DNA from: Macrostomum lignano
Taxonomy: Eukaryota
Direction: 5' to 3'
Assembly (NCBI GenBank): GCA_002269645.1
Contig: NIVC01000757.1
Span: forward strand, 385,127-449,126
Length of the DNA: 64,000 nucleotides
Within the stretch, counting starts at the first letter, position 1; each line of letters begins with the position of its first letter. This document shows positions 15,275-64,000 of the stretch, one piece after another. The notes beneath the pieces were generated by a model. That model worked only from the letters and a program-made list of their open reading frames with translations. It was not told where the DNA came from and ran no database searches. Made by a program: the position numbers and the translations under genes.

Positions 15275-15310
<36 letters not shown>

Positions 15311-22641: not shown

Positions 22642-27805
<5,164 letters not shown>

Positions 27806-35400: not shown

Positions 35401-35940
35401 GGTACATCAATTAACATCGCTACATAAAATAAACATCGGTACATCAATGAACATCGGCACATAAAGTAAGCATCGGTACATAAAATGAACATCGGTACAT
35501 CAATTAACATCGCTACATAAAATAAACATCGGTACATAAAATAAGCATCGGTACATAAAAATAACATCGTTACACAAAATTAACATCAGTACATAAAATA
35601 AACATCGGTACATAAAATGAACATCGGTACATAAAATAAACATCGGTACATAAAATAAAGATCGGTACATAAAATAAACATCGGTACATAAAAGAAACAT
35701 CAGTACATAAAAGAAACATCAGTACATAAAATAAACATCGGTACATAAAATAAACATCGGTACATAAAATAAATATCGGTACATAAAATAAAGATCGGTA
35801 CATAAAATAAGCATCGGTACACAAAATAAACATCGGTACATAAAATAAAGATCGGTACATAAAATAAAGATCGGTACATAAAATAAACATCGGTACATAC
35901 AGTAAAAATCGGTAAATCAAACAAACATCGGTACATCATA
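32435..35940. repeat. 3.5-kb AT-rich satellite, 18/19-bp monomer (AAACATCGGTACATAAAAT), with higher-order structure
   Basis: Read directly; 93-bp pentamer units and a block duplicated with a 1491-bp offset. Confidence 0.95.
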
Positions 35941-36083
35941 ATCATGCAACGGTGTACCTCTAAACACACAAAGCTGCGAATACATCAGCGAAATGGAGAG
36001 TTTTCTACTTTCTTTTCAATACTTGTAAACAAATAAGTATTGTCGCCTATCGAACAAATCCCAATTGAAGGTGCCGCATTTTC

Positions 36084-37421: not shown

Positions 37422-38089
37422 AGTGTTTTGAGGAGTTTTGAGCAATGTGCAGACACCCAAACTGGAAACTGATTTAGGGGCAGGATTTTCAGTCCTCTTC
37501 AATCCCCTACAGCCTCACTCCAAACAGTTTTGAGTAATAAGAAACAGCTATTTTAATTGGCTAGCTGAAAACTCATCGAGGGGTCGCCAGACTAGCAAAG
37601 CCTGGTTGGGATGGAATATTGACTAATTAATGAAGGTTGGGCAGCTGCTGTGTAGTCTACTGCGGTAACAATTGTTTTAATCATAAAAATACAGGAAGAA
37701 ATTGCAGTATTGCAGTTATTTTTATTAAGGGTTTGGTGACGCGCTTTTTAGCTATTTAAATGTTATTTGTGTACATGTGTGACGTCTCTTACTGACGAGT
37801 AGTGAGAAATGAATCTTGCTTGAAACGCTGGGAAACTAGTAACCGAGCTGAAACCTCAGACTCGGAGCAGCCTCCAAAGATCTTAAGCTTGCTGGAGCAG
37901 CTAAGCGAGGCTACATCTCTGAGGGAGACGTAAACCAATTTGTAAGCTTTTGTCGAAGTCTTTGTTATTTGATTATTGAGAGCTGTGTTATTGCCGGCCG
38001 TTATAGTTCAATTGATTTTAATTAAGTTATTGAACTTGAGGCCTCCCTATTCCTAATAAGGGATTGGATAGGATCTTACGCCCAACAAA

Positions 38090-38565
38090 CTGGCAGACAA
38101 TCCAGCGTCTTTCAGAACGAAGTCCTTGCCATCAGCTCCGGTGCAGCTGAGCTCCACTGCAGGGACTTCAAAGACAGAAGAATTTTCTTCGACTCTGACA
38201 GCCAGGCCGCCTTGCAGGCCCTGTGTCACACCACTGCGAACTCCCGAACAGTTCACAACTGTATTGGGCAGCTCAACAAGCTGGCTCGGAGGAACACCGT
38301 CCGGCTCACGTGGATCCCAGGGCACGCCGGTTTCAAAGGTAACGAGCTCGCTGACTCCCTCGCTAAGACAGGTAGCTCCAGCTCGATCCTTGGCCCCGTG
38401 CCTCTGGCCCCCATCCCCGCCACGGTCATTAATCGTCAGATTAACGACTGGGCGGACATCCTGCATCTGCGCAGATGGGATGGCATTTCCAACTGCTGCC
38501 AATCCCGTGCGGCAGTGCCCAACCCGTCCCTCAAGCTGCGGAGAATCCTTTTGAACCAAGGCTAA
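38090..38565 (+). mobile_element. Non-LTR retrotransposon RNase H fragment
   Basis: VFQNEVLAI...DSDSQAALQAL...LTWIPGHAGFKGNELADSLAK are RNase H motifs of the LINE type; truncated on both sides. Confidence 0.85.
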
Positions 38566-38879
38566 GCAGCTAAGTCAAGTAAGTCAAGTGCACTACGGCT
38601 GTTTTGCAATTGTTTACATGCAATCACAGAACTTAAGTAAGTTCTGTGCATGCAATTAACTAAATTGGTGCATGTAAATGCACTATATGTTAGCGTTTAG
38701 AAGGTCAGAAGGGTTCAAAACAGCAACACAAAGAGTGAATTTAGAGAGAATATAAAGAATTATATTGAAACTGCAACAAAAATACTCTCCAAAAATCACT
38801 GTCGGAATTAAAAGTACAGCTACAGGTGTTTAGAACACAGATGCACAACACTTTATGTGCAATCGCAGTACAATTGTTT

Positions 38880-38930
<51 letters not shown>

Positions 38931-39020
38931 CATAATAATCATAATCATAATCATAATAACAGTATTAATAATATTAGTAATAATATTAATAGTAGTAATA
39001 ATAATATTAATAATAATAAT
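38880..39020. repeat. (AAT)n microsatellite
   Basis: Read directly. Confidence 0.95.
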
Positions 39021-39402
39021 TGATTACAGCTGACCCTTTGGGGACGTACGTCTGTTCAGTCCATGGACTGGGGGGTCGCCACACACATCCTCAATTACCG
39101 CAGCTAATGCTGAAATCCATTTTACAGCTGGTTGAACTGAAGCAATGCAGAGTTAAGTGTCTTGCTCGAAGACACAGATTTTTCCTTTGGGATCGGGAAT
39201 CGAACCCGCGAACTTCAAGTCATAAGTGTGATGCTCTAACCTCGGTGCAATCGTTTTATAATGAATAAATATACTCGTTTAAGTTTATTTTTAGTTGAGT
39301 ATTCTTAAAGAGAATCTTAATCAATTCATATTGTTTTTAATGTAATATTTTTAAGAGAAGTACTTCAGTAGCTTTAGCTGTTTTAGTTGTAAACTGCCTT
39401 CC

Positions 39403-40676
39403 CTAGTCGCCAAGCAGGATATTGTAGACCTGGAATTCGCAAATGGTTAGCGGTGTGGACGCAAGCAGATTGGTAATCTTCAGCCTCTGTCCAAAACCCT
39501 GGCACATGAAGCTTCCAACAGAGAATGGTACCGAGAAAGTTAACGTGTTGCATTCGACATCGTCCAGTAGCAGAGTGAAGCTGTTGAGTCTATTGCTGCA
39601 GCAATCCAGCCTATTGTAGATTGTCACGAACGAAATGACCGATGCGCTTGGTAGCACGGCTTCCCACCAGGAGTTGGTGGCCAGTTCAGTGTGGGTGCAG
39701 CTGTCAGCCTGAAAATGTTGATCTCTGTCTCCATCGATTGCTCTCTCGCATGTTTTGCCCGAGTAAACGCTGCTTTGTTTGCACGACAAGATTGGCAGCT
39801 GGATAGCATCTAAAATGTTTAGTAAGTTAGTAACGCAGCCAGATTGGTACTCTTGGTTTTTTAGTTGCAAGTGAAAAATCTTGATATTTCAACGTTCATC
39901 TTGTCCTGGTTAGCCCCTTAGTAGGCAACTAAAATTTCTGAAAACAAATAAAGGCAGTTTTCTCCACTAAATAAAAAAGCTAGACCGGAAATCTTAAGTT
40001 TCAAGAAAAATTTGCTTTCTTGAGCATTGTTAAGCAATTTGACGATCATTATTCACATTTTTAATGCAGAACAATCCACTACTACAAACAATGCATTGTC
40101 TGTAGGATCGTCAAACAGAAAAACAATGCAAAGAATCAGCGGTCCCAGTGCGTGACAACGATTGTCTGGCGAGCGCCGGTAGGCAATAGATATCGCCGCT
40201 ATGGCAATAGAAGGTGAAGTTCACTTCCTGTTTAATTGTAGTTGGAACTTCGGAAATGCCTTTTGAAGCGGCTATCGGTTTCTAACAAAATATGCAATAT
40301 TAGTCCTTTTACTTTAGCCTTCCATGGTTAGCTACAATATAATATTCACAATTCTCAATCCCTTACCAAAAGTACGAGTGCGGACGCTACACTGGCCACA
40401 GCTCAGCCAAGATTGTTTCATGACGAAGGCCGGCATGTCAAACAGTCGGCAGAGTCGCAGTTTGAGGTAGAAACCAAAGCAAGCCGCTTTACTTCGGCAA
40501 TGCAAAGAGCACTGCAAGTCGTCTGGGGCAGGCAAAGCCAAAAACTCAACGGGAGCTTTGCTTGAACCCTCGATTGCGGTTGTAAACTTAAAACTACCTG
40601 GGCAGGTGGCAGAAGCAGATGTAAAAGCTATAATAGCAACGGACCAGAGAAGAGCGCACGAGTAAACATGCCGCAT
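39403..40676 (-). CDS. Secreted PAN/Apple + F-type lectin protein, copy 2
   Basis: Signal peptide plus PAN exon (40676-~40365: CSLHCRSKAACFGFY...CRLF) and FTP exon (CERAIDGD...DSCTHTE...WWEAVL...NRLDCCSNRL...LTICEFQVY*), including the canonical H and R..R fucose-binding residues. Confidence 0.85.
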
Positions 40677-41456
40677 GTCTCAGCTAACGGTAGATTCAAA
40701 ATGGTGTGTAAAAATACGAAAAAGCAGAGCATATTTCCGTCAATTGTGTATATTTTTATACGTGACTTGCTGGCGTTGGGCTGAAAATCTACCTAATTAG
40801 CTGGGAAAACTCATAGAGCAGATTCAGCCAATGGTATTAAGCAGGTCACCCACAACACACAGGGTTAATACAAAGGACTACTTAAGTAGGATGAGAAATA
40901 GGAAGCAGGTTTTACCGAAAAATACATCACGGAGAATGGAGGTTTTCGTTTCTCAGGGCAAAAATGGTTATTGCTTTTGATAGGAGGCAAACTCGACCCG
41001 ATCTTTTGATATGTCATGCCATTCTTATAGCTCTATTGTTATTGATAGAGATTTTTGTGTCAAAATTAGGATTCTATTATAGGATTCTAATTCTATTTCA
41101 CAATCTCGAATGGACAATCTGTGCAAAGATTGTTCAATGCGAATATCAATCGGGCTATAAGAAAATCAAAACATATAAAAGATAAACGTTGGGCCTCGTA
41201 TTTTCCTGTCCTTCTGCTTGAGTTTGCACTTTAATAGACGGAACATTATAATGCAAAATAAAGACACATGATAATATTTCTTCAGCTTTAGCTAAAATAA
41301 TCATAAGTTTCTGTTATTGTTGCAAGAAATGGTTGATGAAATCTGTTACAAATTTGTTTGAATTCATTAAAAACGACTACATCAGTGAGCTAATTTCATC
41401 TTTGGAAACTCGAATCCTGTGAATTCGCAGATTCGTAGCCCTAACATGTGAAGTTT

Positions 41457-41745
41457 TCAATCGAAAATGGTGAGCTGAGGATCACTCGGTTGCACTCGAA
41501 ACCGTCTAGCTGAAGTAAGAACTGCATGGTTGAGCCCTTCAACGCAGTAGATCTGTCTGTTGTACATGTACTCGTAGATGGTGACGATCGAGACGAGAGC
41601 TGCTTTGGGCAGCTCAGCTTCCCGCCACTCGTTCACAACATAGCCAGTGTGGGAGCAGGGCTCGCTTAAAAAGTTACGGTTGGTGTCTCCATCGAGGGCT
41701 TTTTGGCACACTCGGTTAGCAACGGTTGAACTCTGTACATTTCAA
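41457..41745 (-). pseudogene. Degenerate F-type lectin domain (third copy)
   Basis: CQKALDGD...CSHT...EWREAEL...YNRQIYCVEGLN; the motif is eroded and the frame breaks. Confidence 0.6.
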
Positions 41746-44700
41746 TACGTGCAGACTCGAAACCGCTGGAATTCCACATAAAATCGAGTAATTTTATATG
41801 TCTATAACTAAATAAACAGGCGTATCTCCGACCCACTAAAAGGTAGCCAGGAATGCATGGAGAAGTGCTTTTTTGAAGCCATGAAGCGTAACAACTGCCT
41901 TGTGAGTTAGAAATACTTTTTTCTAAAAAGCCTCTAAAGCCTCAAGGCTGAAGTCTCGAAAAGGCTTTTTGAAAGAGTATAAAAAAGTAAAGACACTTCT
42001 CAAAATGAATTGCCGATCAGCGCATTGTTTTCATTGTGTCGCTTTTTTTGCGAGGCTGGTTCTGAGCGAAATAATCGTTTTACTAAACGCTTGCCTGAAC
42101 TTGCTTTTCAAGAGCTGACACTTCGATTCAGTAGCAAAATTTGACTGCTTTGCGAAAGCTCCATGCTATTTTTTCATTCAGCTTTTGTCAACGGAAGCAA
42201 TTAACAATAGCTCCCTTTTGTCGCTCGTATTTTGCATTCACGAGTATGCGCTTTGAGCTTCTTTGAGTTGTCGACTACGTAGAATTAGACACAAAACAGC
42301 GACAGTGAAGTAAAATGTACGAGAGCCAAATATGGCTAATGTTTTAATTTTCGGGAAACAAGGCCATCTTTTGGTAAGTATGAAATTCGCTTTTCAAATA
42401 GCGTGCAGGAATGTAGGACTGACATTTACGCATAATAAAACTGGATGATATATGCGTTATAAAATTCGACAGATTTTAGTCATTGATATATGCTGAGTAA
42501 TGCTTTGTTCTCTGTTAGGGCCATGGAAAAAAGTCCTTCATTCTTTCCTCCATGGTTAGGGCTTGAAGAAGTGGGGACTAAAATAAAATACAAAATTTGA
42601 AGCCAAAAGCTACGTAAATTCCTCATGTCGACCTTGGAAAGTTGTTAGGAGAAGTTATTTCTAGGGCCTCGTCGTCAGAAAATTGATTCTGCGTTTCAAC
42701 AGCAATTCAAGTAGCTAGTCATGGAATAAACGTCAATTAAAGGTCGGTTAGAGAGTTTGATAGAATCGTTTGGAGACAATCATAACATGTGGAACGGAGC
42801 TCTTTTGAAATTCGATGGTGCACAAGTGGACAAATTTTTCAAAGTGGGTCGAGAATCGAACCTCGACCTTTCAGTAGAGAGTCCGACGCTCTAACCACTA
42901 GGCTACAACCCTTAAGGAAAATAAAATCCTTATACCTGAAATTCGCAAGTTATAACCGGTTCTACCTGCAGATTGACTAATCTCACTCTTGCCGTAGCCG
43001 GGACAACTGATAATTTCCCCTAACGATTTTTCCTGCATAGCATTTTTTCCCTAACTCTTAGTAAATCGTAATAAAGAGATTCAGGGGGACATTGCAGCAT
43101 AGCATATAGCTCACCGATTTTCCCTAGATACATATAGAAATTAAAACTCAATTCGAGCCGCTGCTTTCACGGTGGTTGCCTTCTGCGCATCGCTCTTCCC
43201 GCCAATGATGCTCCTAAGTTTGATTTGTGTTAAATTTACTATTATAAGCTTAATAACTCGCCTCCGGAATAACTAATTCAGATCAAAGTTTCGCGGAAAA
43301 GACTTTCTCCGTAGAACTGTTGTTGTTTACTGTTAAGTTATTTGCAGAAAATTAAAAGAAGATGTTGTGACAGTGCAACGTGATTTAGTTGCATGATGAC
43401 TCATTGAATAGTTTGCTTTGACATCTATTGAGAAGTTATTGCACAATCAGTGTTCAGTTTAACGTGCCAATGTTAGCTAACGATTGAAAAATGTACATCG
43501 TGCATGCTTTGACTATAAATATATTGAGCGAGACCCAAGTGTATCCAACTAACTGAATTAAATCAATTAACTAAAAACACAATAGAAGAACCTTTTACGA
43601 GTATCTCATCTCGCCCGAAACAAAAAATATTCATTAAGCTATAAATAAAATGTCGATTCTTTTAGTTTTTTACTATCTTAATTTACTAGTTTAATAAATA
43701 AATTACACAAATCGCGAATATAGAGTCCCATTGTCGTAAAATTGTCGGACGCAATCTGTTTAAAGTCGTTTTCAACTTCAACTATAGTATTAAGTTCTTT
43801 CTATATATGCTCTGGGAATTTTATCGGCTCTTCAAACATTTGTTGTTGAAAAACAACTATAAATTGATGTACTTCAGAACTGTATTATTCAAAAGCTACA
43901 GGTAGAGTCTTGAAGCAGAATTTTATTCCTAGCATAACTTGCTGGCGCGTAGTTTTTCAGTAAAGCGGCCCACTTGACCACTCAGCTGGAATTGCTTTTA
44001 GCTACAATTTTGCTTTCAGCAATGTCTCTGCAAGTAGATACTTGTAGATACATTTCTCCCTAATGCATGTTCCCGAAAATCTAAATTGGTAGCAGAGTTT
44101 ATCTAGTCGCCTAAGAGTAAAGGATTGGAGCAGGTTTCTGGGAGCTCCTGGTCTAAAATTAATGGATTGATCATCAATTGATGGATCTCATACTCTCAGA
44201 CCAGCAATATGATTACACTCAACGATATCGTTCTAGTCCTCCAGAGCAAGTTAAATACGAGCGTATCTATAACAGTCCAACATTTTATATCATTCATTTT
44301 TGCTAAAGCTTCAGACTGAACAACTATACCTTGATGGTAGCTTGAAATATATGCTTTTTGTTTTCAGCATTTTTTCATAAAAAGGTCGCACCAATTGTCA
44401 GGCTTGATATTTCTACGAAAGTAGTCTAGCTGTTTAAAAAAATTACCAGCAGTTATACGGTAACTGTGCATTCAAGTTGTCTGAGTAGTTAGGTCATTCT
44501 GCAATACCTCGTAGCACTCACTTTATAGTCGTTTTAGTTCAAATGTTGCTTACTATATGCTGCATATTCTAGTATTCTACTATAATACAATATGACCTTC
44601 TAAAATTCCAAATTTTCGAAAAGTGCTTGTGCAACAAAAGTCTGAGCAACTGGGTTAGTTAGGTGTTAGAATTTTTGTTTGCAAGAATTATTGTGGATAA

Positions 44701-45064
44701 GAGACTGAAATCTGGTAAAAATGATTTGTAGACACTTGGAGAATGTTCACGGAAACCAACTAGTGAAAGCTGGGGAACGCTGGTTTCAGGTGTTGGAGTT
44801 CAGTTTTATTATTTTCACTGGATTGAGGAGTTTTGGAACAATATAAAAACCCGCTAAAGTTAGCATAGAGTTAAGCCAAGTGAGCAGGTTATGTTTTAGG
44901 AAAGAGGATTTGAAACGGGTAAGACGACTTGAATAAAAACTTGCAAAAATACAAGCTCTTTTGCGTCAGTTCCAAAATCCCACGTGCGGACGAAATTTAT
45001 CAGATAGTGACATTGAGAAGTGATTTACGAAATTGGCAGGGTACATACATGCATGAAAAAGAAA

Positions 45065-45477
45065 TATTGGTTTTTGCGAGCTATCTCAGCCAAGGAGCAA
45101 GCAAAATCATCCATCCCATAGATTTCAATACGACGAAGGAGGTGGTTTGAACCATAGACTATCACGTTTTTTCAACCAAACTCATCCAACGGGCGAGCAA
45201 TCTCAGCCATAGCTTGTCTGCCCATTCATTTCCTCTTCCCTTCTTTCTTTCCTCCTCCTCCGATGGCTCAGTTGAGACAAACATCCTCTTATATACGAAC
45301 CAATTAGATTTTTCGCTTAATAAACAAGCTATGGCTGAGATTGCTCGCCCGTTGGATGAGTTTGGTTGAAAAAACGTGATAGTCTATGGTTCAAACCACC
45401 TCCTTCGTCGTATTGAAATCTATGGGATGGATGAGTTTGCTTGCTCCTTGGCTGAGATAGCTCGCAAAAACCAATAC
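45065..45477. mobile_element. Foldback/MITE: ~153-bp near-perfect inverted arms around a ~106-bp spacer
   Basis: 45065-45217 is the reverse complement of 45324-45477 with about one difference by eye. Confidence 0.8.
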
Positions 45478-46517
45478 TTCCTAATATTTGCCAATCCATG
45501 TTTGCTTGTACGGTTTCATTTTTCTCATCCCACCAGATAGGAGTCCGGAAGTCGGGAATGATGATAACTTGTCTCTGGTGATAAAGTTGCGTTAATGAAT
45601 GTATGTTTTGAGCTGGTTTATGCTATTGGCTTTGCGATGCCTTACATGTACGTATATGTACTCGAAGCTTTATTTTATACATTAATGATGGTGCTATTTA
45701 AGGTTCATTGATGTTATTCAAGGTTCATTGATGTTATTCAAGGTTCATTAATGTTATTCAAGGTTCATTGGTTGATCGTTGGGCCATAGAAAGCAGGCCA
45801 CTAACAGCTGCCAAAACTCTGACTCCATCTAGAGAAAAACACCCAGAACTTCTCACTCACTGCAGATCGACAGCATCGAGTGCAATCGCGTGAACCTAGC
45901 TGACAGCTCCATTCTCTACTTCAAATTTCAACTTTACCTGCTACAAATACGGCAGCCGAGTGAGAGCTGCCATGTTGAAGTGGAAGGTATCTCACTTTTT
46001 GCAAGCTCATAGCCCACGAGTTGCAATTATTAAAAGAATAACCACAACAACAACTAATTCTGCAGCAAATATATTGAATAAAAATCGTTGCATCAAACAA
46101 ACAGGTCTATGCAACCAGGCCCTGTAGTTTTACCTCAAGATGCTGCTTAAACATTCGATAGAGAGCTCATTACGAGTACCTGGAAACACTGGATACTGCA
46201 TATATTTTTATCTAATTATCAGTTCAAAACACTTATTGGGTTTGGTCACTCTCTAGAATAGATATATTATAAACCTGTCGGATCAGTCCGTCAATTAGAA
46301 GGCTGAAGAACTCCATCCAGGTCCCTTCGTTGCGCAAAAGGAATAGAATTCACTTGAATTCTGTCAGTTTTGTCAACTTGAGGCTCTAGACTAGGGTGGA
46401 CCTCATCATTCAAAGTTGACTGGCCCGGCCAGTTACCGATCGCAGTGGGTTTGATTTGAAGCTGTACTTCGGGCTTCATTTCGGTGCTTCAGTTGAAATC
46501 CCTTGGCGTTTTGACCA

Positions 46518-46660
46518 AGAGAATCATTATATATTAACTAAGAATCATTATATATTAACTGAGAATCATTATATATTCTCTGAGAATCATTATATATTCT
46601 CTGAGAATCATTATATATTCTCTGAGAATCATGATATATTCTCTGAGAATCATTATAGAT
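46518..46660. repeat. 21-bp palindromic minisatellite (GAGAATCATTATATATTCTCT), ~6 copies
   Basis: Read directly. Confidence 0.85.
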
Positions 46661-49600
46661 TCTATGTTAATTTTCTGCATTATATTTAGTGCAGCGGTAG
46701 TCCGAGGCCAATATTTTTGCTGCTTTCGATCCGATTCGTTTTTCTTTCTCTCGCCGATCTTTTCTCACCACTTTTCCGCCATCCATGAATTTTTACTTGC
46801 ATAGTGGAGTTTCACAAGCCCTAATATTCACAATGCATAAGTTAAGAATCTAGTTTCACAACGCCTAACTTCACAACACCTTTTAAAATCACCAAAACGT
46901 CAAGCATCGACTTTAACATTCGTTAAAAATATCAACTCGCAACTGAACTATGGAAAATGACTACTGTTATACGAGCGTAACAGTTATTTACCAATGTTCC
47001 CTTGGTAACCGTTAGTTTTTTTATTTTCTTGTCTCTTAACAATAGATCTTTAAAAGTTTGTAGCGCTTCCAGAATTTTGATTCAACATTCGAAATAGAAG
47101 ACAAAAGAAGCTTTTTTTCAGTAAGCTTTTTTTGTGAGTAGATCGAACAAGACCATAAAAAAAGCCTATATTTCGTTGAAACCGGTGCTGCCTTATTTTT
47201 TTATAAGAACATATTGATAAATAGAAAATATTACAATAGAGTTGCCATACGGTTACAATGATTTAAAGTTAAATCATAACCCATACGAGCATCTTGACGA
47301 ACTAATATAAATATGGTGCGAATATAAATATTACACAAGCCACATTACATCCATCGGAGCAAGATGACAGGTGTTAAAAAGTTAGCTTAAGCAGTTTGAA
47401 TTGGTATAGCGCTCGGGATGCGATGCAAGCAATGAACTTTTTCATTCTGCGAGTTCCTGCTTTGTTGTTCGGAGTGGATCGAAAAAGCTGAATTAAAAAA
47501 AGTTTCTTAAACGAGACAAGTTTCAAAAGCGGAAACGCTGCGGTGTTAATCTTGTGTTGTTTTGCCTCTGGGCGTTTTAGTTCAGGTTGAAGACTATTCT
47601 AGATACTATCTCTAGAGTACTGCTGATTTAGCTGATTGCATAAACTTATACTCAAATATAGGTTTGCTAAATTCACGAAGTAAAAAATTAATCCGATACT
47701 TATGACTTAAGGATGTGTCAGTGTTAGCTAGCACTACTTTTGATTCACCGAAACGGGTCAAGCTTTAATCAAAATGTTCCTTTCTTTTGACGATGCAGTA
47801 TGTCCCAATTGTCTTTTCCAAAAAGGATTCTCGCCGAACTACTAGACTGTTCCCTTCTCACCAAACCCCTCGTTCTCACCTTCGATATGGGAGTTTTTAA
47901 ATCCTACTGTCACGTCAAGGACTCCTCAAGTAGAGGGACGGGAAATCTCGTTTCTTGGAAAATTTTAGAAGGCAGTTTTTCCGAAAAATACACTACGGAG
48001 ATAGGAAGTTTTCATTTTCAGGACAACAATTGTTTTTGCCTTCGATAGGAGGCAGACCCAGTGTTCATCTTTTGATATGTTGTGCCTTTCTTATTGCTCT
48101 ATCGATGTTCATAAAGCTTTTCATTCAAAAAATTAGGATTCTGTTAATTTTTTTTTCCATGTACCTAAAAACCATAAAACGCATTGCACGGCTCGATTTA
48201 TTGTCTTTATTAATCTATTTTATCATTTCAATTACACATATTAACATTGTTATATACAGTCAGCTAAGAATGATAAAGCAGACCCATAAAACCGATGAGC
48301 TGAGCCGTCCATTTTAATGGCTTTTGGGCACAGGATATATACAAATGTACATCTTCTCGTCCCGTCCTTCCACTTGAGGAGTCCTTGAGTAACGTTCTCA
48401 TACTCACGGCCCTGTCGTCTACTGGGCAAAAAAACTTTTACTCCTATTCTCGTCTATTAGTATACTATTAAATATTTGCCATGTTGTTTGCGCCGATCCT
48501 TTTATTCTCGAAAAAAAGTTCTACAGTTTGAGGAAATAATGGAGATTATATCGACTTTACTCAGTTTCATTTGTGTTGGAGGCTAGTGGGGGCATACAAT
48601 TCTTTATCGTACTGTGCATGCGAATTTTTAGATTAATGTCTATGTTTCCTGTGTTGAGGAAAGCGGCCTAGAAAACATACAGTTCAGATGGAAACTAGGA
48701 ATAGACGGGCTACTGATAGCACGGTTGCAAAGCCGGAAAGTACCGTCGTCTCACATTGTCATCGTCTTTTTCGTGTTTGTGTCGTGCAATAGCTACATTC
48801 TGCAGAGACTATAGTCTATACACATGTATTTATTATTTGTGATGTAAATTGACATTAGAGCGTCAGTCAAGACCAAAATTACATACTGATTTAGGTGCAG
48901 TATTTTACACGCCGTGTAGATAGACGCAAAATAAATACGAACAAAATTTGCATTTCGGCTGTTTGCTTGCAGTTTTTTAAATATAGGCAACACTGCAAAC
49001 GACAATGGGATGGGCAAACATAGATACAGAATTGTATTTGTTCTTGGAGCTTTTTATACCCTTCAAAATTTCCACAGTATCCGGTCGTATCGTAGCATTA
49101 TATGAAAGTATAAGGGAAGACCGATTTGAGAGCCGAATAAGCGCGCTTGATATTAAAGTAACATGCAAATATAAGTATTAAATATTATGATTCAGTGATA
49201 ACAGTCACAAAGTTTTCACTGGAAATTTTATGTAATCCAGAAAAGAACAGGAAAATAGAGAGACGGTAATTAAAAAAATGAGATCCATTTTTAACCAATA
49301 AAAAATAAACAAAATCGATTGTTACAGAAAAAATGAAACCCAGCATTAATATTTTTTCATTCTTCTTCATCTTCAATCTTCTTTTCGTCTTGAGGAAACT
49401 GATTTTAAGTTTTTGCGAGTATAATGCGAAAGCTGATAAGTTCAAAATAAATTTATGGAGCCAAAATGAGAGGTTGATGAGAGATTCATGTTTATTATAT
49501 CAAACTTGGATTTTTTGTCATGCAGCCTTGGCCATTTCAACCAAACGCTTACGAGCTTCAAACGGCAACGCTAGCCAGCCAACCAACCGCAAAGGAAAAA

Positions 49601-50243
49601 CAGGCAACAGCAAAAATGTTGACAAGATTTGAAGACAACTCCGGGCCGGTTGATGGGAGTGGACTGTCCGTCCAAGTAACTTCAGGTTCCTCCGAGGCTG
49701 TAATAGCAGTAAAGTCCGATTTTAAATGGCTGTAAATTGCGCATCAAGAATCTTAATTGCTACACTTTGCGACACAAGTTGTCCAAATAATATGAGTGAA
49801 TGGGAGGGATGGGCCTTCACTGGTACAATAACACAGCGATAACTTTTGGGGGAATGGCTTGCCTTCCTGATTCTCAGACGTGAGCAACGACATCTGGCAT
49901 GTCTGGGTCTTTCTCAAGCGTAGAAGCCATCGGGAGAATTCAGAGACACTCTTGACAGAACCTTTTTTAGGAGTACATCGATCTGCAACCGCCTTATCTT
50001 GCATGCGCGGTGGAAATATCATGGCTCGTACTATTCAATAGGTGGTAGTAAATATTCAAGCTCCTAACCGATGTCTGCTTACTATCTACTGAAACTATTT
50101 CTGAGAAACTTTTCCTCTCCCCAGTTTTACACCATTCTGTGGCTGTGGCTGTGGTGTCGGCTGCTTCACTGTTATGTGTTTGAGTGTAAATGAAGTGATC
50201 TGTGTTGCTAATACTTTGTATAAAACTTAGTAGAAACTATTCA

Positions 50244-50636
50244 TTATTCACCATTATATAGGCGGAAGTGGATCAGAAAGCCCGTTGATTCTGAATAACT
50301 GTCCGATTTAAAGTGCATCCGAACGTCGACAGCTGGCTCGAGTGTCCTATTGATGCTGATCGTATTCCAGTCGAGTGCAACATGGAAGGTGCGGCGTCCT
50401 GGACCGGAGGCAGCGGCTGCAGTCAGCCACATGCTGTCCCCTTTGGCAAGCGATATGTTCAGGAGGGTCACGTCGGTTGTGAGGTCTGGAATCTGTGGAA
50501 GTTGCCACTCGCACGTCATGTTCGATGAGTAAAGCATGCCACCAGCTCGACCCTGATGACTGGGGATCACTCCCGATGTGTTTGACGCATCCAGAAACTG
50601 GATCGAACCGCATGAGCCGTTGTGCGCTAAAAGCAC
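50244..50636 (-). CDS. CUB-domain exon of a probable membrane-anchored extracellular protein
   Basis: CGS...SGVI.S...YSSNMTCEWQL...HFKSDSYSESTGFLIHF. A likely terminal exon with a Ser/Thr/Pro linker and hydrophobic tail lies at ~49732-49558. Confidence 0.8.
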   Translation of the reverse strand: MLLAHNGSCGSIQFLDASNTSGVIPSHQGRAGGMLYSSNMTCEWQLPQIPDLTTDVTLLNISLAKGDSMWLTAAAASGPGRRTFHVALDWNTISINRTLEPAVDVRMHFKSDSYSESTGFLIHFRLYNGE

Positions 50637-50886
50637 GAGTGGGTATTGAATACAGTATTAATTTTTTATTGAAAAATTAAAAGCTCAGAAACTTGAAAAC
50701 AGCAGAGATGGACTATCCAACAATTTAAGTAGATGCTTGAATTTTATGTTACCGTGATTTTCACGGAGACTTAGGAATGCTTTATTTGCCTGGGACGACA
50801 CAACAAATTTGCATAACTTTCCCAGAGTCCTTACACAAATCGTTAAATTATAATGGCTTCTGCTTTTCGGATACTGGATACTCGTG

Positions 50887-51158
50887 AGTAGTATAGAAAA
50901 AGACGCTTCTAGACCCAGAGCACTTTTTTAATGACCGTTTTAAGGGTCTAGAGGGGGGACACGGGGGGGTAAATAAAAAAACACATCTAAACACCCTTAA
51001 CACATCTAATCACCCATAATCACCCCTAACAATAAAAATCACATCCCAACACATCCAAACACTCCCCAACACCCCCCTCGCGTCCCCCCTCTTAAGACCT
51101 TACAAACGGTCATTAAAATAAGGTCTGATCTAGAAGCGTCTTTTTCTATACTACTACT
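50887..51158. repeat. Polinton terminus folded as an imperfect ~85-bp inverted repeat around a G-free spacer
   Basis: AGTAGTATAGAAAAAGACGCTTCTAGA (50887-50913) is exactly reverse-complemented at 51129-51155, and similarity continues for ~60 bp more. Confidence 0.9.
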
Positions 51159-51808: not shown

Positions 51809-53416
51809 TTAGTTTGCAGATAATATCTGATTCTCATAAAAAGAACCCAATATTTCTTCACCATCCTTATCAGCAATTATATAGGTTGTAGGATTTGTAT
51901 TTAAAACTTTACTGATGGTAAATTTCTCACTTATCTTCCAATATCCTTTTCTTCCCTTTTCAAACTTATCTTTCCATTTATAGATATAAACAGAATCACC
52001 AACTTTAAAACCTTTAGTTTTCTTTTTTTCAAATTCTCCAAAAGTAACCTTAACATTTTCAGGTTTGTTATAAGCTTGTTGAGGAGTCATCTTTATAGCT
52101 GAATGATATGAATTGTTATAATCTTTCACTACGTCTGGTAATATTTTTACCCACTTTTGGTTACCATTAAGACTAAACTGAAACCATAATTTCTTACCTA
52201 AAGTTCGATTAAATCTTTCTATTAATGCGTTTTTACTCTCTCCATAAATAGAATAAATTTTATTAATATACTCCCCATTCGCGTCTTTTTTCCTTTCTTT
52301 TCCTTTTTCAAAATGATACAATTTATACATATGAGGATTGTAAAATTCTTTTCCTTCATCAACACACAATCTTTCGCTTTTTTCTCCAAGATTTCTAAAA
52401 GCAGCAGCAACCTCCTCTCCTTTTTTGGATTTTAAAGGAACAGCCCACGCGTATCGAGTAAAACCATCTAGTATGGTTAAGATATATTTATATCCTCTTT
52501 CATTTGGCATCGACATTAAATCAGCATACCAAATTTCATTCTTTTTGAAGGTCATGATTTTTCTATAAAATTTAGGTTTTCGGTATTCTTTATGAAGAAC
52601 CTTTGCCTCATCAAAACTTAGCCCACTACCACTTAATAACAAACACTCAACACAATTATTTCCATGTTGGTTGTAATTAATTCCCAAACCAAATTTAACT
52701 TTAGACTGCAAAATCTTTTTAACCATCCATCTAGTTAATTTTTGACCTACCGATAATCCCTGTAGGTTATCTAATCCTTGAATCATTTTTCTATCGGCTT
52801 CATGTTTTAATCTTAATGCTTCCTCGGGTGAGTTCTTATCAGCATCTCTGTATGCTAAGTCATGATAATATGCTAACCAGTCAATACCATTTATTGGAAT
52901 TGAATCAGATTTTGGAGTGTCATCAGGATTTAATCTCAAATCTAAGCGAGTGCCGGGTAGTTTACCCTCAATCTTTCGAATGAGGCTGGAGCACACCTTA
53001 AGCGGCGATAATTACCGCCCATCTCCGTCTGCTCTCTGAACCTTCTCCTTATATTTAAAATACTTAGGAGCTTGGCTGCGCATTGCCACCATGTCTTCAA
53101 GCTTTTTACCATCGAACCATAGGTTCGCGTGCAAAGCACGATTGGGAAGAGGAGTTACCTCTGTTCCTTCAAAAGATTTCTCAATTGAAGTGGTACTTGA
53201 AGCTGTATGACGGGTTTCACGCAATTTGGAGATGTCGCCACAAATAGTGACTAGCAAGGACATTGCCTTCCTCACTCAGGCCACGGGTTAACCTGTGAAG
53301 TTCATTGATGGTAGGTGTAGTTCCCCTGTATATTTACCAGTAGTAAAGATTGGTGGTAAGCTTGTTAATCCTTTTTGAACATCTAACAATCCTCCTTCAA
53401 ACACTATTTGGTTCAT
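51809..53416 (-). CDS. Phospholipase A2 (parvovirus-like, PLA2X)-integrase fusion, ~424 aa, split by a group I intron (exon 1 53416-53291, exon 2 52957-51809)
   Basis: Spliced protein: MNQIVFEGGLLDVQKG...GELHLPSMNFTG|PGTRLDLRL...PINGIDWLAYYHDLAY...HEADRKMI (PLA2 Ca-loop and HDxxY), then rve core WYADLM...ILDGFTRYAWAVPLK...LCVDEGKEF...IERFNRTL, then the Polinton C-terminal FKVGD...FEKG...W...GSFYENQI. Confidence 0.9.
52958..53290 (-). ncRNA. Group I self-splicing intron, IC1-like, 333 nt, no internal ORF
   Basis: Folded by hand. P1 with U.G at the 5' splice site (ACAGGU/GCCUG); P3 CAUCUCC/GGAGAUG; P4 UGCGUG/UGCGCA; P5abc with A-rich bulge and GAAA loop; P6a/b with CCUAAG...UAAGG receptor; P7 G-A(bulge)-GAGCA/UGCUCC after AAGGUUCA and UAAGGUG; P8 GGCGGUAAUUAUCGCC; P9 with GAAA loop; P9.0 AG/CU. 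Removing it restores the frame and the conserved GPGT motif. Confidence 0.92.
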
Positions 53417-53966
53417 TTTTAATAGCCTTAAAAATACATGAAAGCACCAATTGTTTTGCAAACTCTTCAATGGTTGGTTGTTTAACTTTTTTATAGTTAT
53501 TATCTACGCTAGTTAAGTATCTTTTATTTGTCCAATGTTCAGACTTTTTCATCTGATCTTCATCTTTGTAACTAAACGAAGAAGCGGGAATGAAATGATC
53601 AATATCTAAATTTCCAGTATAATCTTTTGAAACATAATATTTTCTTGTGAAATTTAACCAATCAAAAAAGAATTCTTTTGTGCAATCAAGATATGAGATA
53701 TAGTCCTTGTCATTAAAATTTTTCAACGCCCAATTTATTCTATTTCTAATTAAAACAATATGTTTGTAATTATCATCATTGTGATACTTGTTTTTTCTAT
53801 ATTCATTAAATTTATCTTTATTGTTTTTCATCCAAATAGTAGATGAGGTATTATGACAAGATCGACAATCATTTCTAAATTTTTTTGAATCATTTCTCCA
53901 AAAATAAAATTCTTTCGTCATTGGTTTTTCTTGTTTACACTTAATACAAATCTTTTTAGGTTCCAT
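53397..53966 (-). CDS. Free-standing HNH endonuclease with N-terminal zinc ribbon (NCLDV/phage homing-endonuclease type)
   Basis: CIKC...CRSC; basic helical linker; YLDCTKEFF..WL; LDIDHFIPASSF...HWTN..YL...DN..K. The stop codon overlaps the PLA2-integrase ATG region by 20 nt. Confidence 0.8.
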   Translation of the reverse strand: MEPKKICIKCKQEKPMTKEFYFWRNDSKKFRNDCRSCHNTSSTIWMKNNKDKFNEYRKNKYHNDDNYKHIVLIRNRINWALKNFNDKDYISYLDCTKEFFFDWLNFTRKYYVSKDYTGNLDIDHFIPASSFSYKDEDQMKKSEHWTNKRYLTSVDNNYKKVKQPTIEEFAKQLVLSCIFKAIKNEPNSV

Positions 53967-54699: not shown

Positions 54700-56171
54700 A
54701 TGGCTGAAACAAAAACTATGTGGAGTGATAAATTTCATTTCAAAAAGCACCGACAGTATATTAATGAGGTCAGAGCAAGAGATTTAAATTATACCCTACC
54801 AACAAGTGATAATTCAAATAACTTTACTACTGGAACGGTAACTTTTGACATCGGCGCAACCAACACTATATTGGATATGAAAAATGCATTTTTCCGTGTT
54901 AGATGGTTGTATACTAGAAATGATGGAACTGCTCTTGCAGCCGGAGATATCGCAGATCGATCCGGAATAATAATAGAAAATGATTGGTTTTATAAATGTT
55001 TTTCCCAAGCTCAACTAACTGTTAATGGTGCTGAGGTTGAGACATCATCAAACCCCGCAGAGATTAATGGAGTTTTGAAACATTTAAATTATACTTATTT
55101 ATCAAAACAAGTTGGTGATAATGTTGGGTGGATGCCGGATAAAGGTAACGGTCAAGCAGTAGTTTTCCCTAATGTACAAAACGCAGCCGGTGCAGATACT
55201 GCAGCGCTAATTGTTTACCTTAATACAAACATAGTTCCAGTTGTAACCACTATGACTAATACAAAAGATATTAATACTGGTTTTATAGATCGTCAGAATA
55301 AATTCCCAGTCGCGGTTTTAACCACAGCAACAGCATATGAGCAGGACTTTTCAATCTTTCCACTATTTGGGTTTTTCTCACCAAATCGGGTATGGAAAGG
55401 ATTAAAATTTGGGATACAGTTGCAAATATCTGGTGGATATCAGCCTAGGATACTTTATGGAACCTCAATTTCAACCGATATAGCAGTTCGTATAGATTCA
55501 ATTCAATTAGTCGTACCAACTATTGAGGTAACAGCCCCACTTTTAAAACACATCGATAATCAGTTAACGCATGATCAGGAAATATTTTATTTGAATCGTC
55601 GACATTTTATGCGAACCATTAATAATAACCAGGATTCATTCCAGTGGCAAATACTGACATCAAAACGTCGGGTGAGATATATTTTTGTTTGGTTTAAGAT
55701 AACAAATAGAAGGAGTAAAAGAGCAAATGGGGATTTATATTGGCTTCAATCCGGTGCCATAGCAGAACAAGCAGCCACCGCAACAGACAATGCGGCTGCA
55801 GCTATTAACGAGTTTAATGTTCAGAATATCCGCCTGCAGGTTGATGATCAATATTATCCGGTTAAAGACCCCTAAATTTAAATATAGCAAATAATAATGT
55901 TAATGATTTTATAAAATATTATCAAGATTATGCTAAAAATGAAGCGTATGCCGTCCCTCAGTACACACCCACAGAGTTTCTAAACATTCATCCAGTGGTT
56001 GTTTATGATCTAACGGCACAGAAAGAAAACGTAGCCAATATTGGACTTAATTATATGTTAGAGATTAATAAAACTGGTAATCAGGCACTTGACGCCCACG
56101 TATTGTTTCTAGAGGAATATATGTCAATTGCTAAAGCTGATGGCACGATTGTTCGGGACGCCCCGCTGTAA
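54700..56171 (+). CDS. Major capsid protein (double jelly-roll, hexon-like); one frameshift at ~55868
   Basis: F.I...N..LDMKNAF...FSQAQL.VNG.EVE; DQYYP then, in the -1 frame, PLNL...YYQDY...EF....PVVVYDL..Q.E...AHVLF. Confidence 0.8.
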
Positions 56172-56220
56172 GCGGCGCAGGTCTCCGACCGTCGCGCCTA
56201 TTTAAATTATTTCTTTAAAA

Positions 56221-56981
56221 ATGGTAAAGGCAAAACACGATAAGATATTTCCAAATGATCCTTTTCTTTGTTTAGTAATCGGAGGATCAGGTAAAGGAAA
56301 AACACACTTTGTTTACGATTTATTAACAACAGATGGAATGTTAGACTATAATAATTTAATAATTTATACTAATAAACCTAGAATAAAATATTATGAATTT
56401 CTTAAACATGGATTAAAAAACAAATTAAAAAAAGATGTCTTGTTTAGAATGTTAAGAGCATATGAGCAATATGAGGATGATGACGAACCGCGATTTAACT
56501 CGATGACATTGAGGATTTATGTAAAACAATGGCACAACAGCCAGAAAACATCACCGAACGAGCTCCAACTGTTAGAGTATCAACCCGATTAGCCTATGAT
56601 CAAATTCCAAAACATGATAAAACACTAATTATTTTTGATGATTGTATTAATGACGGTGATCAAGAATTGCAAAAGGAAATTTTTGTTAGTGGTAGAGGAG
56701 ATGGAATTGGAGCTTTTTATCTAACACAGTCCTTTAGAGAATTAGAATCGATTATAAAAAAGAATGCAAGTTGTTGTGTAATGTTTGATTTAGATAATTA
56801 TGATTTACAAAATATTCACGCTAGATTTAATCCCGGGTTGGATGCAAAACCATTTAAAAGTATGTGTAAAAAAATTTGGGATGATAGCCAATACAAACAT
56901 ATTTATATCAATCCGAGGTTAGAAAGGAAAAATCGAATCTTAAAAGATCTTATAAAAGAAGACGATGAGGAAGAAGAATAA
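56221..56981 (+). CDS. A32/FtsK-like genome packaging ATPase; frameshift at ~56495
   Basis: Walker A LVIGGSGKGKT; Walker B LIIFDDC; GR..GIGAFYLTQS...IIKKNA. Confidence 0.9.
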
Positions 56982-56996
56982 TTTCCCACTATAAAA

Positions 56997-57780
56997 ATGA
57001 CTACAAATTTAGATACTATAAAACAATTGGTAGATCGAACTAATTCAAAATTTAGTACAACATTACAGTTTATAATGACAACCAGCGAGCAACGGATTCA
57101 ATTGCGCGATCCATTACAACTTGATCAAAGCCTAAGTTATCAAATAGGTTTAATACTATTTTCGGTTTTTAACATGCCTCAATTAATTAATGCAACAAAT
57201 AATCAATTTAGATATTCTAAAGATTCCGGAGCCAATTGGACAACATTTAGCGTTAACCCAGGAGCGTATAGCTATACTGATTTGAATGCTTATATAGAAG
57301 GAGAATTAACAACTAATGGAGATTGGGTATCAGGCGCAATTGTTATAGGGTTGATTTACCGTCTGGCAGATTCACACTATCACTAGGATCCGGATATCAG
57401 GTTGATTTCACAATTGCAAATTCACTCAGAACCATACTTGGATTTAATTCCCGAATAGTTACCACATCAAGCACCGGAGATACAGTGGAAATATTGAGGG
57501 TGGAGTTAATACAATTAATATAACAACCGACATATCAAACGGTGGTTATATAACAGATAATAATGGAGTTTTGGTTCAACGTGGAATTATTTATTCAATC
57601 CCATTTCTTGCTGTTCCAATTGGAGAGAAAATGATTGTATCACCTCAAACCCCAATATATTACCCATTAAATCAATATAATGTTCAATCAATTTATATTA
57701 GGATTGTAGATGAAAGCGATAGATTAATAAGTTTTGGTGGGCAGTCAATAACAATAATTTTACGTATAAAACAGGTTTAG
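56997..57780 (+). CDS. Minor capsid protein (penton-like); two frameshifts
   Basis: L.DPLQL...YQIGL..F...N...NN.F.Y...W......GAY...DLN; LGF; IYSIP...VP.G.K.IVSP..PIYYP...I.IRI.D...I.F.G. Confidence 0.8.
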
Positions 57781-57824
57781 CCGAACCAAAGGTTCGAGGA
57801 CTTTGTCCGTTTCCTATAGTAAAA

Positions 57825-58004
57825 ATGGGTAATAATAATAATAATTTAATAAAAAAACAATCAGAAAAAGTTAAAAAAGCTGAAGATAATTACGAACTAG
57901 AACTAGCAAAATTAAGGCAGTTACAAGCTGATAAAATAAGAAAGGAATTGTTAAAACCCACACCTACGAAACTAACTAAAACCAAGAGTTTTTCAGGAAC
58001 ATAA
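57825..58004 (+). CDS. Small basic protein (59 aa, starts MG)
   Basis: Translated by hand; TAAAAATG start context; sits between penton and protease; below the ORF-track cutoff. Confidence 0.5.
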   Translation: MGNNNNNLIKKQSEKVKKAEDNYELELAKLRQLQADKIRKELLKPTPTKLTKTKSFSGT

Positions 58005-58005
58005 A

Positions 58006-58438
58006 ATGACCATGACGTGGGATGATTTTAAACAAAGATATGGAACGACACAACAAGCAATATCGAATTAACAAATTGGGCGAGGCAGTTAAAAATAAAA
58101 CCATTCAGATGTGTTATGCGGATGAGATAAAAGACTTACCAAATATGGATGTTTCATTGTTAATATTGAAACAACAAAAGAAAATGGTGTTCATTGGTCA
58201 GCAGTTTATTCAAAACCAAAACTTGTTTATTTTTTTGATTCATACGCGCTTCCTCCGTTACAGGAAATAAAAGACAAATTTAATCATACTAAAAATCGTT
58301 TATGTGGAGATCATCACGAACAATTTCAAACATTTGATAAAAGTTATTGCGGGCAGCGCGTTATATTTTTTATATAAAATTAATAACTCGAAGGAAAGAC
58401 CCGAAGACTTTAGGGGTATTTTAGACTCTATAAAATAG
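58006..58438 (+). CDS. Adenain-like cysteine protease (capsid maturation), frameshifted
   Basis: Reconstructed across frames: CFIVN...NGVHWSAVY...YFFDSY..PP...QFQ.FD.SYCGQ, giving the catalytic H, D, Q and C. Confidence 0.8.
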
Positions 58439-58447
58439 ACAGTAAAA

Positions 58448-60493: not shown

Positions 60494-60524
60494 AATATTT
60501 ATATATAAAATATTTCTATATAAA

Positions 60525-61967: not shown

Positions 61968-61993
61968 TTTTTTGTTATTTTTTTAGATTAAAA

Positions 61994-62726: not shown

Positions 62727-64000
62727 TTAATTTTTTATATCTTTTTCATATTCTAGAAATGTATTATATTCACAATCACATTCGGATTCACAATCACAAT
62801 CGTAATAATAATTATTTATTGCCTCTTTGTATTCATTATATTTACTTATTATATCTTCTTTTTGTTTTTTATCTTTTATCATATTTTTTATCTCTTCTTT
62901 TAAACCATATGGATATGTTTTAATTTTATCATCTAAATATCTTTTATCATCAAATGGACTTAATGTTTTTTTATCTGTCTCGATGACAAACATCTGATGC
63001 TTATCTGAATTTAATCGATATTGTGGAGCATGATAATTTTCAATTGTATTAAGGTAATCTAAAAGTACGTTTTTATAATCATCAAATGTTATCTTTTTTA
63101 CTGCTGCTCTTGATACCCTTTTATTTTTTTTACCTCTCCCTCCTGTCCTAAAACTTAAATGCATAGCATTTTGATCTTATTGCTATAAACTCGGTTATGA
63201 TTTTGCTATTTAATTCATCTTTCATTTTAAGTACAACTTTTTATTTTGATTCGATTTTAAGGATGGTTATCCGGATAGTCGAGGTCCAATGTATCCTTAA
63301 TTTTTTCCATATCTTTATAGACATCGAACTTTGGTTCGCGGGCTTTGCCCGATCCTCTGTTTCAACCTTAAATACCAAACTGTCGGTGTCTGCATATATT
63401 GGATAGTTATCTGGCCATGTTTTATTTATAACATCATAATAATATTCATACATTACTAGCTTTGCAAATCTAAAACAACCATTCCAATAAATATTGGTTT
63501 AAGAAATTTTGTTGTTTTATTTCTCATATGAATACCCATAAAGTTATCATCAAATTTTATAAAGTCTTTAAAGTTAGGTTTTGAGAAATATTTCTTTGCT
63601 TTATCAATATCCTTTTCTAAATGGAATTGGGTTCTATCTCTAATATTTTCAACCGTTTTTCCATAAAAAGCATTATTCATTAATTTCCAATAATCTTTCT
63701 CAAAATTTGTTTTTGACATCTGTCTCTGATTTGAATTAAAGTCAATATATTTAGCTAACCAATCTTCCTCAATAAACGATATTGTTCGATGTACTTTAGA
63801 CACTTTTAATCCCTGTTTTCATAAAATTGTAGAAGCTTATAATGCACTACATAGTTTTTTTATCATGTAAATTTAATATTAATTTTTTTGTTGCTAGATG
63901 TTTTGCATTATCTGCTTTAAGATAATCTTTTGTGTTTGTGATAAATCATCTTCATTAACTGAACAATGCTCTGGAGCTAAAGGATATTTATATGTTTTTG
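62727..64000 (-). CDS. polB: Protein-primed family B DNA polymerase, C-terminal part (frameshifted, 5' part outside window)
   Basis: YPLAPE; KLILNLHDK; motif B YWKLMNNAFYGKT; KPIFIG..VLDL; motif C YADTDS; terminal KTLSPFDDKRY. Confidence 0.92.

Follow-up and report, generated by a model that had tools for sequence, protein, structure and literature searches.

An IC1-like group I intron interrupts the PLA2-integrase gene of a Polinton in the nuclear genome of Macrostomum lignano

The 64,000-nucleotide (nt) stretch of Macrostomum lignano DNA analysed here (assembly GCA_002269645.1, contig NIVC01000757.1, positions 385,127 to 449,126 of the forward strand; hereafter the window) contains a Polinton, a virus-like element, whose gene for a fusion of a PLA2-like domain and an rve integrase is interrupted on the minus strand by a 333-nt segment. 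Our analysis confirms that this segment is a group I intron with IC1-type peripheral helices, at exactly the coordinates (53290–52958, minus strand) that an earlier note, made from the letters of the window, had given (Table 1). We consider it probable that the intron is functional and was brought to the animal nucleus inside the element, where it would be spliced by the guanosine-initiated route and would spread by homing.

The intron RNA scored 64.5 bits against the Rfam group I model RF00028 (cut-off 50; E = 9e-16) over model positions 1–253, with the match running from 53300 to 52967, which bears out the group I class named in the earlier note. The fast-filter Rfam scan of the whole window returned no match and overlooked the intron; the same kind of scan matched three of seven loci and overlooked L026 and L222, the latter being recovered when scanned alone. 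The folding stability of the intron corresponds to z = -4.2, and none of 100 shuffled sequences was equally stable. Helices P1 to P9, including a P3 of 7 base pairs (bp) and P8, could be placed, together with P9.0 and a P10 in which four of five pairs form. The 5-bp extension of P1 proposed earlier has to be corrected, as only two intron pairs are present. The U·G splice-site pair and all five exon pairs of P1 are invariant in 44 of 44 loci. P2, P2.1, a P5abc with an A-rich bulge and a GAAA L5b, and a P6a/b receptor are all present, features that we take to define subgroup IC1. The receptor is one base off, and that of family B (see below) identical to, what we assume to be the canonical 11-nt motif. 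Because no P9.1 or P9.2 extensions were seen 3′ of P9, the intron is classed only as IC1-like. P5 of the window intron carries an additional 30-nt double hairpin (53143–53112) that is absent from copies of 298–303 nt. Both of its hairpins appear again in the element (51613–51640), with their order exchanged, and this optional insert, compared in L029, L209 and L210, is perhaps a small mobile palindrome. Another hairpin insertion, at 53410–53413, is visible in sequencing-run contigs.

Two further lineages carry an intron at the same site. In a second Polinton family (family B; the window element belongs to family A), whose integrase is ~60% identical, an 880-nt intron occupies the same codon boundary and scores 88.9 bits against RF00028, and in L222, an IMG/VR contig with an integrase 35% identical, the same-site intron scores 52.0 bits. 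Comparison of pairing between families A and B, which covered 44 loci (2 skipped, 2 unaligned in the 3′ part), revealed 10 two-sided compensatory changes (one each in P3, P4, P5a, P5b and P5c, two in the extra hairpin and three in P7), and none of 50 pairs across P1, P3, P4, P5a-c and P7 is broken in family B, which also folds its own P6b and P8. The guanosine-binding pair of P7, G53034-C52989, is G-C in both families, and the three P7 pairs that differ from family B are all compensated. The earlier note had counted three compensated P7 changes relative to Tetrahymena; two hold, both compensated, against the Rfam consensus and three against family B, while the third Tetrahymena change depends on what we take to be the P7 sequence of that organism. 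Predicted proteins P0133 and P0004 from other assemblies read the group I core as protein straight into PGTRL, so that further occupants of the site exist.

The interrupted gene provides independent definition of the intron ends. Among 120 homologs found, 79 were matched by the start of exon 2 and 59 of those also by exon 1; in 57 of the 59 the two exons abut at G|PGT with a gap of 0 residues, and the other two are weak partial matches. Intron-less alleles of family B, found in 9 of 15 loci fetched from 27 junction matches, are contiguous there as well, in agreement with the earlier proposal that intron removal joins two frames at NFTG|PGT. The insertion splits the invariant Gly|Pro of the PLA2 loop. 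Further relatives of exon 2 comprise one intron-less metagenome locus and, among viral contigs, none by single query and two by alignment. The gene is a PLA2-integrase fusion because intact homologs carry both PF08398 (PLA2-like) and PF00665 (rve); exon 2 of the window matches PF00665 with E = 1.7e-7 and 31.9 bits, slightly below the cut-off of 32.6 that homologs exceed. The label PLA2X used earlier has to be given up, as the adintovirus PLA2X described in the accessible part of PMC8502044 is PLA2 with a C-terminal pX, whereas here PLA2 is fused to rve.

Since the first intron codon is an in-frame stop for the exon 1 frame, homologs are contiguous and no GT-AG pair restores the junction, the prediction that the full PLA2-integrase protein requires splicing is supported. 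Two-step splicing initiated by guanosine would yield this fusion protein and would gate its production, as the first frame of the pre-mRNA would end at the first intron codon. That the segment is instead spliceosomal, or was inserted neutrally into a dead gene, can hardly be entertained: a GT does lie 2 nt before the 5′ end of the intron, but each of the five GT-AG pairs that keep the frame alters the length of the protein (by -6 to +10 residues, never by 0), and none yields the homologous junction, nor would this explanation account for the full-length RF00028 match and the covariation. Sequencing-run contigs over 52400–53900 (four runs, their RNA origin guessed) showed no joint spanning the intron and several pieces crossing exon-intron borders; such contigs lose rare forms and may be DNA, so they are uninformative on splicing either way. 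No RNA run was listed among those that contain the stretch.

Group I introns nearly always end in G. The last base of the window intron, at 52958, is A, a feature overlooked by the earlier note. The 3′ end is fixed at this position because the homolog junction and P9.0 agree. A 3′ splice site at an upstream G was considered and rejected, as the in-frame choice adds three residues to a loop that is insertion-free in 57/59 homologs. When the terminal base was scored, in 47 of 52 loci, the 31 introns of family A ended in A (26) or G (5), all 16 of family B in G, and the L222 intron also ends in G. A count by eye over the junctions of 100 listed of 122 genome matches found, in family A, 63 with A and 17 with G and, in family B, 20 with G. 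It is unlikely, if conceivable, that useful splicing has been lost in the terminal-A lineage, so that active ribozymes are confined to copies with a terminal G, and that the integrase core is supplied by translation from an internal ATG at 52786 or by other copies. Such a loss of splicing would fit A52958 together with the altered J8/7, the 325-codon ORF (open reading frame) that contains the rve core, and the split capsid, ATPase and polymerase frames of the window copy. Against it, most family A junctions have A (63 of the 80 just counted), a state that spans copies 84–100% alike, every P7 change is compensated, parts of the protein supplied only by splicing are under purifying selection, and there is a precedent. 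In the accessible text of PMC6545197, the coral mitochondrial intron ND5-717, which lacks a terminal G, is spliced with exon ligation in vivo at reduced efficiency, >70% of precursors staying unspliced. Given this precedent, the missing terminal G lowers the canonical status of the intron and not its group I membership; by analogy, the terminal A probably slows the second splicing step. ND5-717 resembles the present case as an animal group I intron in a protein gene without terminal G; unlike it, ND5-717 is mitochondrial and vertically inherited, with a giant P8 and no mobile host (PMC6545197, as far as accessible).

Selection was assessed from the ratio of non-synonymous to synonymous variation (pN/pS) after a 70% identity filter, which dropped frameshifted copies, though a few with 5′ shifts stayed in the exon 1 set. 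Variants of exon 1 shared among 24 terminal-A copies are 10 synonymous to 2 non-synonymous (sites 29:97; pN/pS 0.25). For the 57 codons 5′ of the first ATG of exon 2, the same counts in 18 terminal-A copies are 17.5 to 6.5 (sites 38:133; pN/pS 0.09), and the rest of exon 2 gives a pN/pS of 0.13. Thus, both exons look conserved in the terminal-A lineage and, as the conserved parts are usable only after splicing, this lineage probably still splices.

Several observations weigh against a functional and mobile intron. The selection signal could have come by recombination from terminal-G or intron-less lineages, and the copies, which include haplotype duplicates, are not independent. P10 is imperfect, most scored family A loci end in A, and both J8/7 and P7 of family A depart from the Rfam consensus, whichever the terminal base. 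No pair-for-pair alignment exists between the families for P6b, P8 and the ends of P5 and P9, whose length or pairing is not the same. Family A codons occur in none of the 27 junction matches, which therefore include no intron-less family A allele, so that homing in this family lacks a visible target in the assembly. Finally, the ATG at 52786 opens 325 codons with the whole rve core, from which an integrase core might be made without splicing; the earlier statement that integrase expression depends on ribozyme splicing is too strong on this account.

A nuclease of one of three types, PD-(D/E)xK, endonuclease VII (EndoVII)-like or GIY-YIG, lies inside or just upstream in every intron allele examined. 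The family B intron contains a 160-residue ORF in its P2.1 loop that matches PF09553 (Eco47II) above cut-off, and this embedded PD-(D/E)xK ORF is present in all 20 family B intron loci. Its structure model, with a predicted local distance difference test score of 92.8, best matches the fold of EcoO109I (E = 7e-5); AvaII ranks seventh and other PD-(D/E)xK enzymes are matched too. Identity to solved enzymes is 13%, a sequence search of the PDB with the nuclease gave no match, and the PD-(D/E)xK homing enzyme I-Ssp6803I is absent among the fold matches listed. D65, E76 and K78 of the D...E-x-K motif are invariant in 14 sequences. With this intact motif and its location within an intron, the ORF is a candidate homing endonuclease. 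In family A, the slot upstream of exon 1 is filled by a free-standing nuclease, which in 30 loci is PD-(D/E)xK in 11 and EndoVII-like in 19, the window among them; the free-standing PD-(D/E)xK enzyme is 66% identical to the one embedded in family B. L222 has a GIY-YIG ORF in this slot. None of the three types occurs within 1.5 kb of 15 loci taken from the intron-less junction pattern. A motif scan showed the group I core continuing from the nuclease ORF in 9 of 17 close homologs, and RF00028 had no match at distant nuclease relatives (10 viral loci and one genome locus). A single-sequence structure model of the 189-residue EndoVII-like ORF of the window was set aside on account of its score of 39 in the same test.

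This arrangement matches collaborative and classical homing. Collaborative homing is known from phage (Bonocora and Shub 2009 and Zeng 2009, according to PMC11296320), and the part of PMC11296320 that is accessible relates the proposal that a free-standing nuclease beside an ORF-less intron is the forerunner of intron-embedded nucleases. As in phage, free-standing and embedded states are both found here, within one nuclease family at 66% identity; unlike in phage, the carrier is a eukaryotic integrating virus and three candidate nuclease folds occupy one slot. The intron probably spreads among co-replicating Polintons by nuclease-driven homing, which would be classical in family B, with the nuclease inside, and collaborative in family A and L222, with the nuclease adjacent. 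The PD-(D/E)xK enzyme may cut a GGNCC-type site that the intron interrupts, a step of which we are less sure. We give little credence to the alternative that the intron is not self-splicing and needs proteins of the host or the element, for example the neighbouring nuclease as maturase. The terminal A and weak P10, the constant company of a nuclease and the existence of host-dependent nuclear group I introns (in the accessible part of PMC3679873) would all suit it, but three unrelated nuclease folds in one slot fit homing better than a dedicated maturase. The complete P5abc, the receptor and the GAAA loops, which we take to be marks of autonomous IC1 ribozymes, likewise argue against it.

The Gly-Pro codon pair is always GGNCCN, and insertion of the intron breaks the GGNCC. 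This motif, which was picked from the nuclease family before counting, is the site of Eco47II, recorded "without certainty"; the sites of EcoO109I and AvaII are RGGNCCY and GGWCC. The window element (13.1 kb) contains one GGNCC against 14.3 expected from dinucleotides and 6.7 under a stricter model (P = 0.0095; rank 4 of 136), and the host flank contains 92 against 64–81. Intron-bearing family B has none against 4.1 expected (rank 1 of 136) and L222 none against 2.8; summed over the three lineages, one was observed for 13.6 expected (Poisson about 2e-5). Over 7.6 kb of an intron-less family B copy the insertion site is the sole GGNCC (4.4 expected). Gly-Pro does not occur in the 3471 residues of the window element's ORFs (6.3 expected), and Pro-Gly occurs four times. 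No depletion is seen in a further Polinton, L223 (5 observed, 4.6 expected); a stretch of C1049 is invalid as a control, being mostly non-element with a G + C fraction of 0.48. In four homologs (P0012, P0017, P0021 and P0027) the insertion site is Gly-Ala instead of Gly-Pro, which would remove the obligatory GGNCC and could mark escape alleles.

These counts raise the possibility, which we hold only tentatively and at somewhat less than even chances, that a restriction-like Polinton nuclease cuts a GGNCC-type site, that the elements protect themselves by purging such sites rather than by methylation, that the intron breaks a remaining site and that the system is active. The Gly-Pro codon pair of the PLA2 loop would then be the one site that cannot be purged, broken in DNA by the ribozyme intron and restored in RNA. 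As the site would be unique in intron-less rivals, a 5-bp cutter could work as a homing enzyme, and the intron would be an immunity device in a system active in animal cells, with one lineage splicing with a terminal A. No methyltransferase was seen in the stretches examined. Four points count against this scheme: synonymous resampling, which keeps the protein fixed, leaves a weak depletion (1 observed, 4.3 expected; P = 0.074); other nucleases are carried by the window copy and the seen part of L222; a restriction enzyme of a helper giant virus could have caused the avoidance instead, related nucleases being found in giant-virus contigs; and the DNA of the host would also be exposed to a 5-bp cutter, unless its action were limited to a lytic phase or a compartment or its site were longer.

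The earlier note had also proposed a Polinton host integrated in an animal nuclear genome, and the data support both parts. Across the assembly (764 Mb, 5269 contigs), the terminal motif of the element has 214 matches and a 35-nt intron motif 117, the latter number inflated by haplotype duplicates, with 0 for each control. Terminal inverted repeats (AG...CT) and exact 6-bp target duplications bound three of four complete elements, including the intron carriers C1530 (~17.7 kb) and C110; the window copy itself is truncated by the contig end. Wnt, an animal-specific family, has 86 matches in the assembly, and contigs C952, C67 and C506 hold Wnt exons and the intron together, which identifies the genome as animal; a COX1 search gave one match, below threshold. 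As up to four contigs have identical Wnt exons, more than one haplotype is present in the assembly, and copy counts overstate distinct insertions. We regard it as very improbable that the element derives from a protist symbiont, a food organism or misassembly. In its favour, the Polinton-like elements known to carry group I introns belong to protists (PMC12220804, as far as accessible), many copies lie near contig ends, and one of the four complete elements, C904, is without a target duplication. Such an origin is, however, at odds with the target duplications of the other three within differing host flanks, with Wnt on the same contigs and host genes beside the window copy, and with the presence of the stretch in 20 listed runs from seven studies under one organism label, one of them maybe the source of the assembly.

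The closest published cases are protist. In the accessible parts of PMC12220804 (2025), 51 RF00028 matches are reported in integrated Polinton-like viruses of Rhodomonas lacustris, Paulinella and Desmodesmus, and the 32 of 51 rows of its Table S11 that could be consulted are all Rhodomonas. Those introns resemble ours in matching RF00028 at 309–376 nt and in residing in a protein gene of a multi-copy element integrated in the nucleus; they differ in their protist hosts and in their location, which is a short gene lying upstream of the one for the capsid instead of PLA2-integrase, and the section of that paper on introns contains no analysis of nuclease, splice sites, terminal base or site avoidance. 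According to the accessible text of PMC3679873 and PMC10964413, group I introns of the nucleus occur in rRNA genes only, with animals excluded save early-branching lineages and five sharks; PMC3679873 confines them to microorganisms and describes the characterised nuclear homing enzymes as all His-Cys box, whereas here a protein gene in an animal and a PD-(D/E)xK nuclease are involved. The shark "spintrons" (PMC8393795, also cited in PMC10964413, both in part) are likewise claimed as group I introns of an animal nucleus, but they are putative, lie in a ribosomal DNA (rDNA) internal transcribed spacer, and involve no protein gene or mobile element. The core, P2/P2.1, P5abc, receptor and P9.0 are shared with nuclear rDNA IC1 introns such as that of Tetrahymena, as is a nuclease ORF in a peripheral loop. 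The family B ORF resembles Eco47II (PF09553 match), EcoO109I and AvaII (fold matches), but differs in sitting in a eukaryotic intron with no methyltransferase in the stretches examined. Our literature search, which did not extend to most subscription papers or to bioRxiv supplements, brought up no animal Polinton and no nuclear protein gene of an animal for which a group I intron is described, and none was met with in the accessible texts on adintovirus, coral polintovirus and nematode Polinton (preprint), in PMC3943268 or in a 2026 preprint. The earlier assertion of no prior description accordingly holds for animal Polintons, but is qualified by the protist Polinton-like viruses and the putative shark spintrons.

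From sequence comparison, what appears to be new is a protein gene in animal chromosomes as the host of such an intron, a Polinton as its carrier, an end that departs from the canonical G, a candidate homing enzyme that resembles restriction enzymes, and a candidate mechanism of site avoidance. The presence of such an intron, in many copies, within a protein gene of animal chromosomes runs contrary to the restriction to rRNA and microorganisms given in the accessible review texts, and points to integrating DNA viruses as a route for ribozyme introns into animal nuclei. Splicing of such an intron from an animal nuclear mRNA becomes testable with natural material, including terminal-A and terminal-G versions of one ribozyme. 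At one site, a single genome offers alleles without the intron, introns that lack an ORF but adjoin a nuclease, and introns that encode one, which are the proposed stages of mobile intron origin, and the PD-(D/E)xK ORF may represent a new kind of eukaryotic homing nuclease. Since fast Rfam scans pass over the intron and gene callers read into it, introns of this class may be escaping notice on a wide scale.

Table 1. Coordinates of the intron, its helices, the interrupted gene and neighbouring features in the window (position 1 is its first letter)
Feature	Position	Strand	Description
Group I intron, IC1-like	52958..53290	minus	333 nt; RF00028, folds, family B covariation, homolog junction, P9.0
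P1 guide helix	53277..53295	minus	5 exon pairs and 2 intron pairs; splice-site pair U53291·G53281
P2 and P2.1	53237..53276	minus	folds; P2.1 loop is the seat of the family B nuclease ORF
P4-P5-P5abc	53076..53224	minus	A-rich bulge (P5a), GAAA L5b, P5c, optional 30-nt double hairpin
P6a/P6b and tetraloop receptor	53045..53071	minus	receptor near-canonical
P7	52989..53034	minus	strands 53034-53030 / 52993-52989; P3 3′ strand and P8 between
P9.0 and P9	52958..52987	minus	P9.0 is 52987-52986 with 52960-52959; P9 loop GAAA; terminal A52958
Exon 1, PLA2-integrase gene	53291..53416	minus	ATG 53416, 42 codons, ends N-F-T-G; N-terminal half of PLA2-like domain
Exon 2	51809..52957	minus	382 codons, starts P-G-T; remainder of PLA2-like domain and rve integrase; internal ATG 52786
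Endonuclease VII-like (His-Me finger) ORF, free-standing	53397..53966	minus	189 residues; phrog_1035, E = 9e-7; overlaps exon 1 start by 20 nt
Element left terminus	50887..51155	plus	begins AGTAGT; inner inverted copy 51129-51155
Virion module	54700..58377	plus	major capsid-like, A32-like ATPase, penton-like, protease-like; each split into 2 overlapping frames
Family B DNA polymerase, 3′ part	62727..63818	minus	several frames; YxDTDS motif in sequence; contig ends at 64000
Host flank	10168..50657	minus	BBS7 exons, WSC, F5/8, PAN, CUB-like exon 230 bp from element end
Rhodopsin-type G protein-coupled receptor (host)	2237-3070	plus	flank annotation

The virion module is putative, its frames showing weak Pfam matches (Pox_A32 among them) and similarity to L222 and L223, the protease-like frame being presumably such from its motif; the polymerase fragments match L223, and a sequence search of the PDB with the capsid-like protein gave no match. 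The split virion and polymerase frames (54700–63818) reflect decay or long-read error, and both exons and the nuclease frame are open. Each terminus has an inner inverted copy of its first 27 nt, ~240 nt inward. In the host flank, the BBS7 gene (10168–17951, minus strand) has satellite-filled introns, and the lectin-like exons (WSC, F5/8, PAN) lie at 30200–40700.

Intron relatives also occur outside the three lineages described above. Gene callers translated a group I core in other assemblies (P0133, P0161, P0004, P0042, P0144-P0150, P0156 and P0162), and these misread proteins indicate same-site introns in lineages 47–59% identical, as well as intron-embedded nucleases; a search with residues 1–70 of P0133 gave one match. 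L045, L207 and L208 hold yet another form of the intron, which has a different insertion in P2.1 and seems truncated; the L045 copy is situated 750 nt upstream of a family B gene that is complete and lacks the intron. Among 119 loci of viral contigs that carry the P6/P7 motif, none is in a PLA2-integrase gene and the likeness is at core level only, and a scan for the splice-site motif gave five loci, the sole relevant one being L227, the contig of L222. The viral contigs L100, L087 and L141 each hold several group I-like cores within 5 kb, and L087 also encodes two relatives of the 189-residue nuclease.

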